In this document: piece by piece, positions 7,894 to 13,420 of the stretch | Position numbering within the stretch: the stretch's first letter is position 1 | How the letters are laid out: each line of letters opens with the position of its first letter | NCBI RefSeq assembly: GCF_000744945.1 | Contig: NZ_JQMX01000001.1 | Span: 3,087,130 to 3,111,129 of the forward strand | Reading direction: 5' to 3' | Source: Carnobacterium maltaromaticum DSM 20342 | Lineage (GTDB): Bacteria; Bacillota; Bacilli; Lactobacillales; Carnobacteriaceae | Length of the DNA stretch: 24,000 nt | Made by a program: the position numbers and the translations under genes | Notes under the pieces: model-generated | What the model was told of the DNA's origin: nothing | Seen by the model: only the letters and a program-made list of their open reading frames with translations | Databases searched by the model: none

Positions 7894-7926
7894 GTATATA
7901 CAAAATGGTATATACTAGTATATAAT
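7894..7926 (+). promoter_or_regulatory. Promoter of the glycosylasparaginase/PTS operon overlapped by three GTATATAC palindromes (putative HutC/GntR operator)
   Basis: GTATATAC occurs at 7894-7901 and 7908-7915 (both perfect and self-complementary), with GTATATAa at 7918-7925. Consensus -10 TATAAT is at 7921-7926 and the -35-like TATACA at 7897-7902 (18-nt spacer). Confidence 0.6.
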
Positions 7927-7996
7927 AAAAAGAAAAGAAAGCGTTTTATCCAATGGAGAATAGATAGAAAAACTTATCTTAAGGAGTGACAATAAA

Positions 7997-8950
7997 ATGA
8001 CATATGGAATGATTGCTACATGGCGTATGGCTTATGATGGTGTTGCATCAATGACAGAAGCGTTAAAAAACGGTGAAGGCGCAGGCACTGCTTTGGTTGA
8101 GGCGATTAAAAAAGTTGAAGATTACCCGTTTTATAAATCGGTGGGGTATGGAGGCTTCCCTAATGAAGAATGTATTCTTGAGATGGATGCTGCTTATATG
8201 GATGGAGATACATTTGATATTGGAGCAGTTGCTGGTATTCAAGATGTGAAGAATCCAATTGCAGTAGCTGAAGCTTTGAGTCATGAACGATTCAATTCCT
8301 TTTTAGTAGGTGCAGGGGCAACAAAATTTGCTAAGCAAGCAGGTTTCGATTGTCGAAATATGGTAACAGCACGTGCTAAGCGTTTATGGGAATTGCGTTT
8401 GGAAGAAATCCAAAAGCATAATTTAAGTCCTTATGATGGTCACGATACAGTTGGTGCAGTTGCCTTAGATTTAAATAAAAAAATGGTAGCAGGAACTTCT
8501 AGTAGTGGTCTATTTATGAAAAAAAGTGGACGTGTTGGGGATTCACCATTATCTGGTTCTGGCTTTTATGTCGATAGTGAAATTGGTGGTGCAACGGCTA
8601 CAGGTTTAGGAGAAGATTTAATGAAAGGGTGTTTAAGCTACGAAATTGTCCGCTTAATGGGAACTGGTATGCATCCTCAAGCTGCTGCAGATCAAGTGGT
8701 TTATGGTTTTTCTGATTTACTAGAAAAGCGGAAAGGGAAAGCCGGAGCATTTTCATTAGTCTGTATGAATAAGAACGGTGAATGGGGAGTCGCAACGAAT
8801 GTTGAATTTTCTTTTGCAGTCGCAACTGAAAAGGAAGCTGCAGAAATTTATTTAGCATATCCTGCCGAAAATAAAACGACGAGAATCGAAGTTGCAGATA
8901 AAGCCTGGTTAGATGCCTATGAAGCGCGAATTAAAAAGCCTGTAGACTAA
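7997..8950 (+). CDS. N4-(beta-N-acetylglucosaminyl)-L-asparaginase (glycosylasparaginase, Ntn-hydrolase asparaginase-2 family), cytoplasmic
   Basis: Autoprocessing/nucleophile motif GHD|TVGAVALD (Thr151, nt 8447-8449). The strings GRVGDSPLSGSGFYVD and GGATATGLGEDLMK match glycosylasparaginases more closely than isoaspartyl peptidases. No signal peptide. AAGGAG RBS. Confidence 0.8.
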   Translation: MTYGMIATWRMAYDGVASMTEALKNGEGAGTALVEAIKKVEDYPFYKSVGYGGFPNEECILEMDAAYMDGDTFDIGAVAGIQDVKNPIAVAEALSHERFNSFLVGAGATKFAKQAGFDCRNMVTARAKRLWELRLEEIQKHNLSPYDGHDTVGAVALDLNKKMVAGTSSSGLFMKKSGRVGDSPLSGSGFYVDSEIGGATATGLGEDLMKGCLSYEIVRLMGTGMHPQAAADQVVYGFSDLLEKRKGKAGAFSLVCMNKNGEWGVATNVEFSFAVATEKEAAEIYLAYPAENKTTRIEVADKAWLDAYEARIKKPVD

Positions 8951-8988
8951 AGTAAAGTAAGGATTAAGCAAAGGAATGGTGCAACAAA

Positions 8989-9714
8989 ATGGAAACCAAC
9001 AAGCAAGGTATTTATATAGAGGTAGCAGAACAATTACATGAACGAATTCAAAATGAAACGTACAGTGCAGCGCAAAAATTGCCTTCCGAATATGAACTAG
9101 CCAAGGAATTTAAGGTTAGTCGGTTAACAATCCGTAAAGCAGTAGATGAGTTAATTAAAAAGGATATTTTAATTAAGTATAAAGGTAAGGGTACCTACAT
9201 TATGACCCAACAGCAAAAAATTCAAAGTGGTCGTGGTGGGTTGCAAGGATTTACTGAAGCTGCAGAAGCTTATGGGTTAAGTTCGAAGACTCATGTCATT
9301 GAATTTGAGTTGGTTGAATCAGCACCAGATTCAATTTTAAAAGCGTTAGAATTATCAGAAGGAGATAAATTGTACCATGTCAAACGTTTAAGATTAGCCA
9401 ATGATGAGCCAATGACAGTGGAAGATATGTATATTGATGAAAAATATTTGCCAACTATTAATCAGGAGTTAGCTAGTCAGTCTTTATTTGGCTTAATTGA
9501 AAAAGAAGCCGATATTGCCTATTCTCATCAAGAAGTAGAAGCCGTTTTAGTTAATGAAGAAATGAGTCAGCTGTTAGATGTTTCAATTGGAGATCCGATG
9601 CTGCTAGTTCATTCGGTGACCTATTCCGTAACAGGTAAACCATTATTACATGATACATCCTATTACCGAGCGGATAAATACACATTTAAAAATACATTGC
9701 ATCGTTTTAAGTAA
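8989..9714 (+). CDS. GntR-family transcriptional regulator, HutC subfamily (wHTH plus UTRA effector domain)
   Basis: N-terminal LPSEYELAKEFKVSRLTIRKAVDELIKKDIL helix-turn-helix. The 241-aa length and C-terminal region are typical of UTRA domains. Only 38 nt separate it from the asparaginase gene, with no terminator. Confidence 0.85.
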   Translation: METNKQGIYIEVAEQLHERIQNETYSAAQKLPSEYELAKEFKVSRLTIRKAVDELIKKDILIKYKGKGTYIMTQQQKIQSGRGGLQGFTEAAEAYGLSSKTHVIEFELVESAPDSILKALELSEGDKLYHVKRLRLANDEPMTVEDMYIDEKYLPTINQELASQSLFGLIEKEADIAYSHQEVEAVLVNEEMSQLLDVSIGDPMLLVHSVTYSVTGKPLLHDTSYYRADKYTFKNTLHRFK

Positions 9715-9731
9715 GTTAGTCAAAGTATTTC

Positions 9732-9762
9732 CTCGCAGTTTTACATTCATTGGAACTGCGAG
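9732..9762 (+). other. Stem-loop without a U-tract between the regulator gene and the PTS genes
   Basis: CTCGCAGTT (9732-9740) pairs with AACTGCGAG (9754-9762). It is followed by TTAAAAAA rather than a T-run. Confidence 0.5.
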
Positions 9763-11510: not shown

Positions 11511-11522
11511 GAGGTGAAAAAA

Positions 11523-12041
11523 ATGATTAAAGTAGTTTTAATTTTAAATCATGTCCAAGCCGGCATGGGGAGTGATGAAAATGCACTATTAGCTCCAGGT
11601 GGAAAGAAAAGCCCGATTGGACCTGGGATGACTTTAGAACCATTAATTGAATCTTTTGGTGGTACTATCGTAGCAACTCTGTATTGTGGCGATCGTTATT
11701 TTTTAGAAAATGAAGCTGAGGTCAAAAAGAAATTTATTGGTTTTTCTAAAAAATTTGAAGCAGATGCTGTTTTATGTGGTCCTGCCATGCACTATCCAAA
11801 CTTTGGAGAAATGTGTGGTTCGCTAGCCAAAGCTATGAATGAAAATGGGATCCCAGCAATTGCTGCCATGTCAGCTGAAAATCCAGCTACTGCAAACTAT
11901 CAACATGATATTCCTATTGTAAAAATGCCTAAAAAAGGCGGAATCGGTTTAAATGATTCCTTTAAACATATGGCGCAGTTAGTTGTGGCAAAAGGAAAGT
12001 TGGAAGATACAGCGCGTTTAGAAGCGGAATTTTGTTTTTAA
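11523..12041 (+). CDS. Stand-alone protein resembling the N-terminal domain of glycine/sarcosine/betaine reductase component B (GRDB family); function unknown
   Basis: IKVVLILNHVQAGMGSDENALLAPGGKKSPIGPGMT resembles the GrdB N-terminus (..VVHY.NQF.GQIGGEEKA......G.VGPG as I recall it), and DAVLCGPAMHYPNFGEMCGS resembles GPAFNAGRYG.ACG. It ends at TAA and contains no in-frame TGA. ATG 11523 is preferred over the track's GTG 11514 (GAGG 11511-11514, 8-nt spacer). Confidence 0.6.
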   Translation: MIKVVLILNHVQAGMGSDENALLAPGGKKSPIGPGMTLEPLIESFGGTIVATLYCGDRYFLENEAEVKKKFIGFSKKFEADAVLCGPAMHYPNFGEMCGSLAKAMNENGIPAIAAMSAENPATANYQHDIPIVKMPKKGGIGLNDSFKHMAQLVVAKGKLEDTARLEAEFCF

Positions 12042-12068
12042 GAAAGAACAGGGCGAGGTGAAAAACGG

Positions 12069-13376
12069 ATGCATGAACAAATAAAAGCAGCTGTTAAGGG
12101 AAAAGAAGCCGAATTTTTGGCTGGATTGAAAAAAGTCATGAAAGTGGATAGTGTTAAAGGTCTTGCTGAAACTGGAGCTCCTTTCGGGAACGGTCCGAAA
12201 AAGGCTTTAGAAACAGCTTTAGATTTAGCTAGCGCACTGGGGTTTGAAACAAAGATAGTTAGTGATGCTGTGGGGTATGCTCAATATGGAACGAATAATG
12301 ACGAGTATATTGGCGTTGTTGGGCATTTGGATGTTGTTGAGGCCGGTAGTGGTTGGTCTTATCCGCCATTTGATTTAACCTTAGAAAACGGAGTTTTATA
12401 TGGCCGTGGTGTCTTAGATAATAAAGGACCAGCCATCAGTACCTTATATGCTTTAGCTGTGTTAAAGGAGTTAAATATCCCTTTGAGTAAAACCATTCGG
12501 ATTTTATTTGGTACAGATGAGGAAAGTGGTTCAGCCGATATCCCTCTTTATTTAGCCACCGAAAAACCGCCAATCTATGGATTTACGCCAGATTGTAAGT
12601 ATCCAGCTGTATATGGGGAGCGTGGCTTAGTTGGGATTGAAATCGTAACAGTAATGCCTGAAAAAGAGTTAAAACAGATCTCTAACTTTAAAGGGACTTT
12701 TACTCGTAGTTCCGTACCCGATCATTTAGAAGTTACCTTGAAAAACGGGGAAGAAATTCTGATTGAGGGCAAACGAGCTCCAAGTAATGCACCTGAAATG
12801 GGAGAGAATGTTCTGACTAAATTTGCTGAAATAGCAACGAATGAACACTTTTTTACAGGGGAATTAGCTGATTATTTTAGCTGGTTGGCAACAGCACTCC
12901 ACCTTAAACATGATGGGTCTGGTTTAGGTATTGATTTCTCAGATCAAGCTTCAGGAAAATTAATGCTAACACCCTATGCGTTTAAAATAGAGAAAAACAA
13001 AGTTCATTTAACACTTTCAATTCGCTATCCGGTCTCTGTCACTGAAGAAAACATTCTAGTGGAATTGAAACAGCATTTACCAATGGATAGTCAACTTCAA
13101 ATTATTCGGAAAATGCCTGCAACTTCGTTTCCGTTAGACCATCCTATGTTAAAAATAATGCAGGAAGTCTATGAAGAATGTACAGGAATGGATGGTACAC
13201 CAGTGACTACAACAGGTGCAACGTATGCGAGAACTATGCCAAATATTGTTGCTTTTGGTCCGTCTTTCCCAGGTCAAAAAGGGATTGCTCATAATAAGGA
13301 TGAATATATGGATTTGACTGATTTAATGAAGAATATGGAGATTTACGCAGTGACTATGGCTGAATTAGCTAAATAA
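12069..13376 (+). CDS. M20-family metallodipeptidase, PepV/Sapep-like
   Basis: GHLDVVEAGSGWSYPPFDLTLENGVLYGRGVLDNKGP and FGTDEESGS are M20 metal-ligand and catalytic motifs. 435 aa. Confidence 0.8.
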   Translation: MHEQIKAAVKGKEAEFLAGLKKVMKVDSVKGLAETGAPFGNGPKKALETALDLASALGFETKIVSDAVGYAQYGTNNDEYIGVVGHLDVVEAGSGWSYPPFDLTLENGVLYGRGVLDNKGPAISTLYALAVLKELNIPLSKTIRILFGTDEESGSADIPLYLATEKPPIYGFTPDCKYPAVYGERGLVGIEIVTVMPEKELKQISNFKGTFTRSSVPDHLEVTLKNGEEILIEGKRAPSNAPEMGENVLTKFAEIATNEHFFTGELADYFSWLATALHLKHDGSGLGIDFSDQASGKLMLTPYAFKIEKNKVHLTLSIRYPVSVTEENILVELKQHLPMDSQLQIIRKMPATSFPLDHPMLKIMQEVYEECTGMDGTPVTTTGATYARTMPNIVAFGPSFPGQKGIAHNKDEYMDLTDLMKNMEIYAVTMAELAK

Positions 13377-13378
13377 AA

Positions 13379-13420
13379 ATAGGGAAGAACACGCTCATAT
13401 TGAGATGTGTTCTTCCCTAT
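13379..13420. terminator. Bidirectional terminator between convergent genes
   Basis: A 14-bp perfect stem, ATAGGGAAGAACAC (13379-13392) with GTGTTCTTCCCTAT (13407-13420). The T-rich flank is on the minus-strand side (complement of AAATAAAAAT) and TTTGGG lies on the plus side. Confidence 0.8.

Follow-up and report, generated by a model that had tools for sequence, protein, structure and literature searches.

A probable Carnobacterium maltaromaticum ortholog of the Enterococcus faecalis ega locus, predicted to serve the use of GlcNAc-asparagine

Identification of an ega-type operon

We analyzed a 24-kb stretch of the genome of Carnobacterium maltaromaticum DSM 20342 (24,000 nucleotides in total; hereafter, the window), and found that a six-gene locus in it is very probably the ortholog of the ega locus of Enterococcus faecalis, namely, a repressor-controlled operon for the use of N-acetylglucosamine-L-asparagine (GlcNAc-Asn), the remnant of broken-down N-glycoproteins. 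The six genes, denoted G, R, B, C, D and P in their order along the plus strand (Table 1), encode a glycosylasparaginase, a GntR/HutC regulator, the enzymes IIB (EIIB) and IIC (EIIC) of a lactose/cellobiose-family (lac/cel) phosphotransferase system (PTS), a protein resembling the N-terminal part of GrdB, and a PepV/Sapep-type M20 dipeptidase. The ega (enterococcal glycosylasparaginase) locus was described by Combret et al. (2023, Res Microbiol 175:104169, PMID 37977353), and is described in turn in two further papers (PMC11549559, PMC11976118). According to the former, it contains the N4-(beta-N-acetylglucosaminyl)-L-asparaginase called EgaG, an EIIB and an EIIC of the lactose/cellobiose type and an oxidoreductase-like pseudogene, while its GntR regulator and its dipeptidase are driven by a second, separate promoter (PMC11549559). 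The system is therefore already described in Enterococcus, and the C. maltaromaticum copy is, as judged from its sequence, a rearranged further member whose function is predicted only.

A preliminary description of the window, made from the letters of the sequence, had listed six co-directional genes at this place and had assigned each of them to a family. All six open reading frames (ORFs) are indeed present on the plus strand, with gaps of 3 to 82 nt (38, 82, 22, 3 and 27 nt as listed, from G through P), and every family assignment scored above the curated cut-off in Pfam and NCBIfam profile searches. The reading offered there, namely, PTS-dependent uptake of a GlcNAc-Asn-type compound, an intracellular glycosylasparaginase, a GntR repressor and a borrowed enzyme IIA (EIIA), matches the ega locus of E. 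faecalis as PMC11549559 and PMC11976118 report it. On the other hand, the accompanying remark that this chemistry was not known to have been characterized has to be withdrawn: Combret et al. had reported the system in 2023, and NCBI family models exist for both the regulator and the GrdB-like protein. Since these two models, NF041547 and NF041545, are specific, curators had already recognized this gene neighborhood.

For comparison, we used an E. faecalis-type reference locus (L085), which has the gene order R-P-G-B-C-D and whose D represents a 90%-identity cluster with named members from E. faecalis. All six families occur in the window, with protein identities to L085 of 52-76% (G, 69% over 317 aa; R, 52%; B, 76%; C, 74%; D, 66%; P, 54%). 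The two loci also have in common a tandem GTATATAC operator at the egaG-type promoter, the lack of an EIIA gene, and a cytoplasmic asparaginase. However, they differ in layout, since the window has G-R-B-C-D-P with one operator-bearing promoter and with the regulator embedded in the operon, whereas ega consists of two units, egaR-egaP and egaG-egaB-egaC-egaD1D2. Furthermore, D is intact in the window but is a pseudogene in E. faecalis OG1RF (PMC11549559), and the host is a Carnobacterium associated with food, fish and meat, in which the function of the system is predicted.

The second system to be compared is the alf-2 locus of Lacticaseibacillus casei BL23 (alfHC / asdA-alfR2-pepV-asnA2-sugK; PMC6960285). 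It has the same core of an asparaginase (AsnA2), a PepV-like M20 dipeptidase and a GntR/HutC regulator, its asparaginase is likewise intracellular, and its substrate is likewise a glyco-amino acid of the N-glycan core. The window differs from it in using a lac/cel PTS for uptake and phosphorylation and in adding the GrdB-like protein; the families of the AlfH MFS permease, the AlfC alpha-L-fucosidase, the SugK ROK kinase and the AsdA aspartate decarboxylase were not detected among the ORFs of the window by Pfam searches.

Related loci were collected in a scan with one genome per species, which gave 80 loci among the matches listed (of 570 or more), classified by tblastn and phmmer searches with the six window proteins; the Carnobacterium and E. 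faecalis loci came from exact-protein look-ups instead. Such look-ups placed a protein identical to G on HE999757.2 (3.65 Mb) and on JQBG01000034; D is 99% identical to a protein listed at NCBI under C. maltaromaticum. The counts of loci given below hold for the matches listed.

Table 1. Coordinates of the features annotated in the window
Feature	Position	Strand	Description
Amino-acid permease fragment	37-861		Tyramine cluster
Tyrosine decarboxylase	926-2785		Tyramine cluster; tyr_de_CO2_C domain
NhaC-type Na+/H+ antiporter	2873-4270		Tyramine cluster
Intrinsic terminator of the upstream 62-aa ORF	7836-7863	+	12-bp stem, then UUUUUUAUUAU; bounds the locus at its 5' side
Promoter with embedded operator	7891-7926	+	-35-like TATACA 7897-7902; -10 TATAAT 7921-7926
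cre-like sequence AAGAAAGCGTTTTAT	7935-7949	+	Between promoter and G; weak match
G, glycosylasparaginase	7997-8950	+	317 aa
R, GntR/HutC regulator	8989-9714	+	241 aa
Hairpin in the R-B gap	9732-9762	+	12-bp stem without U-tail; -17.8 kcal/mol, z = -2.7
B, lactose/cellobiose-family EIIB	9797-10129	+	110 aa
C, lactose/cellobiose-family EIIC	10152-11510	+	452 aa
D, GrdB-N-terminal-like protein	11523-12041	+	172 aa from revised start (listed ORF 11514-12041, 175 aa)
P, PepV/Sapep-type M20 dipeptidase	12069-13376	+	435 aa
Operon-ending hairpin	13377-13422	both	-29.5 kcal/mol (+), -26.6 kcal/mol (-); z ~ -8.9

The asparaginase and its transporter

The protein G matches Asparaginase_2 (PF01112) with 202 bits, and its closest relatives of solved structure are the glycosylasparaginases of Elizabethkingia (169 bits, E-value 1e-48), which lead the isoaspartyl peptidases and plant-type L-asparaginases (about 100 bits) by some 65 bits. 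Its homologues at 67-86% identity carry the NCBI name N(4)-(beta-N-acetylglucosaminyl)-L-asparaginase, and it scores only 110 bits with the beta-aspartyl-peptidase equivalog NF007589, for which the cut-off is 567. We therefore rejected an isoaspartyl peptidase or plant-type L-asparaginase of the IaaA/EcAIII kind as its identity, in line with the preliminary description, which had preferred a glycosylasparaginase. The HD|T autoprocessing motif with Thr151 as the nucleophile, also proposed there, is borne out as well: no member of the family alignment departs from H149, D150 or T151, and these residues align exactly with the autoprocessing site of the Elizabethkingia enzyme. In addition, G keeps the Arg/Asp pair of GRVGDSP, the oxyanion region TATG, and Trp9, the equivalent of Trp11 in the Elizabethkingia enzyme. 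As to the location of the protein, the N-terminus of G reads MTYGMIATW, and its residue 6 aligns with residue 8 of the crystallized Elizabethkingia chain; since the alignment begins that early, a signal peptide would find no space ahead of it, in agreement with the preliminary description. We therefore assign G from its sequence as a cytoplasmic N4-(beta-N-acetylglucosaminyl)-L-asparaginase, the ortholog of EgaG and AsnA2, predicted to be autoprocessed at D150/T151.

Like the glycosylasparaginases of Elizabethkingia (Flavobacterium) meningoseptica and human, G belongs to the N-terminal nucleophile (Ntn) hydrolases with HD|T autoprocessing and a threonine nucleophile. It differs from them in being cytoplasmic, without a signal peptide, rather than periplasmic or lysosomal, and in its substrate, which is presumed to be phosphorylated. 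Furthermore, Phe13 and Asn12 of the Elizabethkingia enzyme are replaced by Met11 and Arg10, respectively, and Arg10 is invariant in the family of G.

In the transporter, B matches PTS_IIB (PF02302) above the cut-off and contains the phospho-cysteine loop FCDAGMSTS with an invariant Cys11, so that it is classed as a lactose/cellobiose-family EIIB and the predicted ortholog of EgaB. C matches PTS_EIIC (PF02378) and TIGR00359, the cellobiose EIIC model (441 bits), and is by sequence a lactose/cellobiose-family EIIC and the putative ortholog of the GlcNAc-Asn permease EgaC. That EIIC passes a cellobiose model is one of two points in favor of a quite different reading, in which an ordinary cellobiose or chitobiose PTS happens to lie beside an isoaspartyl peptidase/L-asparaginase and a dipeptidase, these serving only the catabolism of beta-aspartyl peptides or asparagine; the other is that some sources label homologues of G 'isoaspartyl peptidase/L-asparaginase'. 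However, the bit scores of G given above run counter to such a label, the operon contains no phospho-beta-glucosidase, the six genes and the operator are conserved together across genera, and in E. faecalis the use of GlcNAc-Asn depends on the ortholog, according to the title of Combret et al. and to PMC11549559 and PMC11976118. We consequently regard this alternative as very improbable, and retain a GlcNAc-Asn operon as the reading of the locus.

An EIIA gene had been reported as missing, and this holds across the entire 24-kb window, in which neither Pfam searches of every ORF of at least 90 aa nor a tblastn search with a lac/cel EIIA from a related locus detected one. In E. faecalis, the EIIA of the GlcNAc-L-Asn PTS is CelA1 (PMC11976118). 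By contrast, tblastn searches located a gene for a lac/cel EIIA immediately behind that of EIIC or D in many enterococcal ega-type loci (at about 12.7-13.5 kb in L020, L024, L033, L035, L036, L038, L040-L042, L045, L048 and L053), so the absence of EIIA is a trait of the lineage rather than a rule.

Control of the operon

The best promoter-like match of the region (10/12) lies upstream of G, and an operator is embedded in it. An exact palindrome, GTATATAC, occurs at 7894-7901 and again at 7908-7915, giving the arrangement GTATATAC-N6-GTATATAC, and a third copy, GTATATAA, follows at 7918-7925; the two exact sites are the only ones in the 24-kb window. The sequence of the region 7891-7926, CAGTATATACAAAATGGTATATACTAGTATATAAT, is all but identical to the one that precedes egaG in the reference locus L085, CAGTATATACAAAACAGTATATACTAGTTTATAAT, and near-identical operator sequences are also present in C. 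gallinarum and in a Bacillus sp. More widely, 32 out of 81 loci have the tandem GTATATAC motif ahead of G. As no terminator-like site occurs between the genes of the operon and a single promoter bears the operator, G-R-B-C-D-P apparently forms one transcription unit.

The regulator R has GntR and UTRA domains in Pfam and scores 346 bits with the equivalog NF041547 (GntR_LSA1692; cut-off 275), a model anchored in the LSA1692/asnA2 region of Latilactobacillus sakei. The solved structures closest to it are NagR/YvoA and DasR, both of which are GlcNAc-responsive. By these matches R is classed as a GntR/HutC-family repressor, the predicted ortholog of EgaR and AlfR2, and as its gene lies inside the operon, R presumably controls its own expression through the operon's promoter.

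A second level of control is suggested by a sequence resembling a catabolite-responsive element (cre) between the promoter and G. Read against the established cre consensus it is a weak match, but at the same position the L085 locus has ATGTAAGCGTTAACG, a better match, and C. gallinarum has AAGAAAGCGTTTTAA. The element is a candidate CcpA site, and suggests that CcpA may take part in the control of the operon. The hairpin in the R-B gap may be an element of mRNA processing or stability; we rejected it as a conserved attenuator, as it is missing from the same gaps in C. gallinarum and Bacillus sp.

Related loci in other genomes

The preliminary description had proposed a comparison of gene neighborhoods across genomes, and in this comparison the six-gene set and the operator turned out to be kept as a unit across genera. 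The commonest arrangements, R-P-G-B-C-D (14 loci) and R-P-G-B-C (9 loci), are those of Enterococcus and Vagococcus, while rearranged versions occur in Lactococcus, Latilactobacillus, Lactiplantibacillus, Pediococcus, Bombilactobacillus and Lacticaseibacillus, and a leaner set, (A)-G-C-?-B, in Bacillales and Clostridia. The loci sampled from Latilactobacillus and Lactiplantibacillus lack EIIB and have D before C, with proteins 37-64% identical to those of the window; in that of L. graminis (L054, G-R-D-C-P), the regulator gene comes immediately behind that of the asparaginase, just as it does in the window. In a distant variant (L089), a gene for an aspartase-like Lyase_1 protein adjoins the asparaginase gene, as would fit a pathway that yields aspartate.

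The order G-R-B-C-D-P itself was not found among the 80 loci listed. It recurs, however, in C. gallinarum (L087, 7001-12398; 72-94% identity), where the downstream flank contains the same DUF218 and NUDIX genes as in the window plus an inserted TraX gene, and in Bacillus sp. APMAM (L088, 6672-12387; 49-78% identity), whose order is A-G-R-B-C-D-P, with its own lac/cel EIIA overlapping the start of G. That a Carnobacterium and a Bacillus have this gene order in common suggests horizontal transfer.

The asparaginase is partnered among the matches listed either by a PTS or by the alf-2 set of an MFS permease, a ROK kinase and a fucosidase. The latter kind is represented by R-P-G-ROK kinase-MFS-alpha-L-fucosidase (L014, 7856-14104) and R-P-G-GHL6 hydrolase-ROK (L030, 7930-13817) in Enterococcus and Vagococcus, and the asparaginases of these two loci are 66-69% identical to G of the window, like those of PTS-type loci. 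The earlier proposal that the asparaginase/PepV/GntR core is common to alf-2 and that the transport module has been swapped is borne out by these alf-2-like loci. The pathway is thus modular, one core being combined with a PTS in some loci and with a permease-kinase-fucosidase set in others. One Enterococcus genome (AZ128) holds both types of locus (L021, L026).

Predicted pathway and its substrate

We propose the following course of events. Without substrate, R would bind the tandem GTATATAC operator over the promoter and repress G-R-B-C-D-P, its own gene included. GlcNAc-Asn would enter through EIIC and receive a phosphoryl group by way of EIIB, presumably on O6 of its GlcNAc; as the donor we assume a lac/cel-family EIIA whose gene lies outside the window, by analogy with E. 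faecalis, where the borrowing of CelA1 is known. The self-processed Ntn hydrolase G would then cut the beta-aspartyl-glucosylamine bond of the probably phosphorylated substrate to yield aspartate and (6-P-)GlcNAc-1-amine, which would decay to ammonia and GlcNAc-6-P, the latter being passed to the NagA/NagB pathway. P would trim peptide, and D may be an accessory protein tied to EIIC, one that is not essential in E. faecalis OG1RF, where its gene is a pseudogene. That G acts on the phosphorylated form is suggested by the PTS context together with the pathway of E. faecalis, for which Combret and colleagues are said to have described PTS uptake with phosphorylation, followed by hydrolysis by EgaG to aspartate and 6-P-GlcNAc-amine.

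AsnA2 of L. casei accepts a substitution at O6, as it acts on 6'-fucosyl-GlcNAc-Asn (PMC6960285), so a 6-phosphate is plausible and the pocket would be open at O6. Such an open pocket fits the outcome of a comparison between PTS-linked (n=52) and ROK-kinase-linked (n=11) asparaginases, in which no alignment column separated the two groups at 80% conservation; Arg10 is invariant in both.

Several points weigh against the proposed reading of the operon. As no column separates PTS-linked from kinase-linked asparaginases, the sequence of G gives no independent hint that the enzyme is adapted to a phosphorylated substrate. Substrate, inducer and phosphorylation site are all carried over by analogy from an E. 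faecalis ortholog at 52-76% identity, and the biochemical detail on ega comes through citing papers (PMC11549559, PMC11976118). The predicted transcription layout departs from that of E. faecalis in having a single promoter with an operator where ega has two units. Finally, the reading leaves the roles of D and P without explanation.

The protein P matches Peptidase_M20 (PF01546) and TIGR01887 of the Sapep family (408 bits), and its best matches in the PDB are PepV of L. delbrueckii (1lfw) and Sapep of S. aureus, by which it is assigned as a PepV/Sapep-type M20 dipeptidase, the predicted ortholog of EgaP and PepV. Its presence raises the question whether the true substrate could be a GlcNAc-Asn dipeptide, a short glycopeptide or chitobiosyl-Asn, which would be imported by the PTS and trimmed by P before G acts. 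In the majority of loci, whether of the PTS or of the kinase type, the genes for P and G are linked, and extra M42 and M20 peptidases occur in some variants. Moreover, glycosylasparaginases require free alpha-amino and alpha-carboxyl groups, and the authors of the L. casei study proposed the same trimming of glycopeptides as the role of PepV (PMC6960285). However, that study found PepV not to be needed when the glyco-amino acid was free (PMC6960285), and E. faecalis takes up free GlcNAc-L-Asn through this PTS, as stated in PMC11549559 and PMC11976118. The operon also lacks a glycosidase for removing the second GlcNAc. We know of no precedent for a lac/cel-type EIIC that carries peptides. Taking both sides together, we consider a glycopeptide or chitobiosyl substrate quite unlikely, and free GlcNAc-Asn remains the substrate that we predict for the operon.

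C. maltaromaticum is a bacterium of meat, fish and dairy products, and an occasional fish pathogen. The locus itself opens no new question; its value is that a pathway for scavenging host glycoproteins, characterized in Enterococcus, would now extend to this species, where GlcNAc-Asn from degraded glycoproteins could aid growth on meat. A knockout of asnA2 in L. sakei is said to grow more poorly on meat. The same gene is induced during sausage fermentation, according to work cited in PMC6960285.

The GrdB-like protein encoded next to EIIC

The listed ORF of D begins with a GTG at 11514, which falls within the ribosome-binding site of D; the likely start is the ATG at 11523, located behind GAGGTG, which gives a protein of 172 aa, as in the homologues. 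The protein matches positions 1-158 of the 347 of the GRDB profile, and scores 217 bits with NF041545 (GrdB_like_no_Se; cut-off 175), so that we classify it as a GrdB-N-terminal-like protein without selenocysteine and as the putative ortholog of EgaD. It was rejected as the selenoprotein B of glycine, sarcosine or betaine reductase, as it has 172-175 aa instead of about 430 and scores 64-99 bits with the GrdB, GrdF and GrdH equivalogs, whose cut-offs are 600-800; moreover, no gene of the grdE/grdA type turned up among those ORFs of the window that have 90 aa or more. Residues invariant in D are QAGxGxxE, following strand 1, YCGD, CGPA and PKKGGIGL. The AlphaFold model of D (predicted local distance difference test, pLDDT, 96.6) has a flavodoxin-like alpha/beta fold, for which the best Foldseek match in the PDB has a TM-score of 0.49, the top matches being generic flavodoxin-like folds (succinyl-CoA synthetase beta, CheY receivers). 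Comparison with PDB sequences gave no meaningful match to D, and our literature search found no study of the GrdB-related protein, nor of this locus in Carnobacterium.

The gene for D lies within 34 nt of that of EIIC in 28 of 28 loci. Of the 13 PTS-type loci without an EIIB near EIIC, 11 contain it, compared with 17 of the 41 that have one (p ~0.01, not corrected for phylogeny); the two loci lacking both D and a nearby EIIB are not clean cases, since L057 has an EIIB upstream of G and L064 lies on a short contig. Three unusual loci were also observed: D-B-C-MupG, with a protein of a 6-phospho-glycosidase family and without an asparaginase (L091, 73-3568); B-C-D-M42-M42-asparaginase-M20-aspartase-like lyase (L089, 4300-12249); and PRD regulator-EIIA_2-B-C-D-M20-asparaginase-EIIA (L090, 1937-9067). 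Because D accompanies B and C beside other catabolic enzymes in these three loci, it may be tied to the transporter rather than to the asparaginase, which we offer as a lead and not as a finding.

One form of this lead is that D is a part of the transporter itself and not a catabolic enzyme, a subunit docking on EIIC that replaces or assists EIIB, in which case the phosphorelay would differ from the textbook scheme. The constant adjacency to EIIC, the enrichment where no EIIB is nearby, and the persistence of D with B-C where a MupG-type 6-phospho-glycosidase takes the place of the asparaginase all favor it. EIIB of the cellobiose system has a flavodoxin-like fold, as the model predicts for D, and the AGMGS loop that follows strand 1 of D resembles the AGMSTS of EIIB. 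However, profile-profile comparison of D with EIIB by hhalign gave a probability of only 16%, with the DxVLxGP strand motif as the sole shared feature, no EIIB was found among the top 50 Foldseek matches in the PDB, and D has N-H or D-Q in place of the phospho-site cysteine of EIIB; on these grounds homology of D to EIIB is unsupported, and we rejected D as a disguised EIIB. It also counts against a transporter subunit that D is a pseudogene in E. faecalis OG1RF (PMC11549559), a strain in which GlcNAc-Asn use is reported by Combret et al. to persist, that a missing EIIB could be borrowed just as EIIA is, and that the association statistic has no correction for phylogeny. On balance, such a subunit seems unlikely.

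A further and more novel proposal, to which we give a low chance, is that D is not an oxidoreductase but a cytoplasmic partner of an EIIC subfamily for conjugates linked to GlcNAc or N-acetylmuramic acid (MurNAc), either docking instead of or beside EIIB, or processing the unstable 6-phospho-glycosylamine. If this were true, the adjacency of D to EIIC, its enrichment where EIIB is lacking, and the B-C-D-MupG locus would point to a new accessory component of the PTS. A separate observation concerns a 251-aa product (P0240; L086, 6001-6756) that joins an EIIC fragment to a GRDB domain. It was rejected as a functional EIIC-GRDB fusion, as no other ega genes lie nearby, and is taken to be the decayed remnant of a C-D pair.

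Boundaries and flanking genes

The preliminary description had placed the operon between two strong hairpins, and both are far more stable than shuffled controls, although only the upstream one was called by the terminator scan. This hairpin (7836-7863), with its U-run, has a free energy of -16.7 kcal/mol (z = -5.4 relative to shuffled controls), and ends a 62-aa ORF (7619-7807) with two CPY-type cysteine pairs (CPYC...CPYEDC) and no Pfam match, the position of which is conserved in all C. maltaromaticum contigs. The scan made no call on the plus strand for the downstream hairpin at 13377-13422, where the tail is only UUUGGG; since the better U-run sits on the minus strand, it is probably a bidirectional terminator common to the operon and to the convergent DUF218 gene (13427-14470, minus strand).

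A tyrosine decarboxylase (tyramine) cluster, whose members are given in Table 1, occupies 37-4270, a short way upstream of the region. Farther downstream, at 18313-21450, a lipoate-protein ligase gene on the minus strand stands opposite plus-strand genes for E1 alpha and E1 beta of a 2-oxoacid dehydrogenase of the pyruvate/acetoin type, and the E1 genes are followed by a gene for a SorC-type sugar-binding regulator at 21679-22653.

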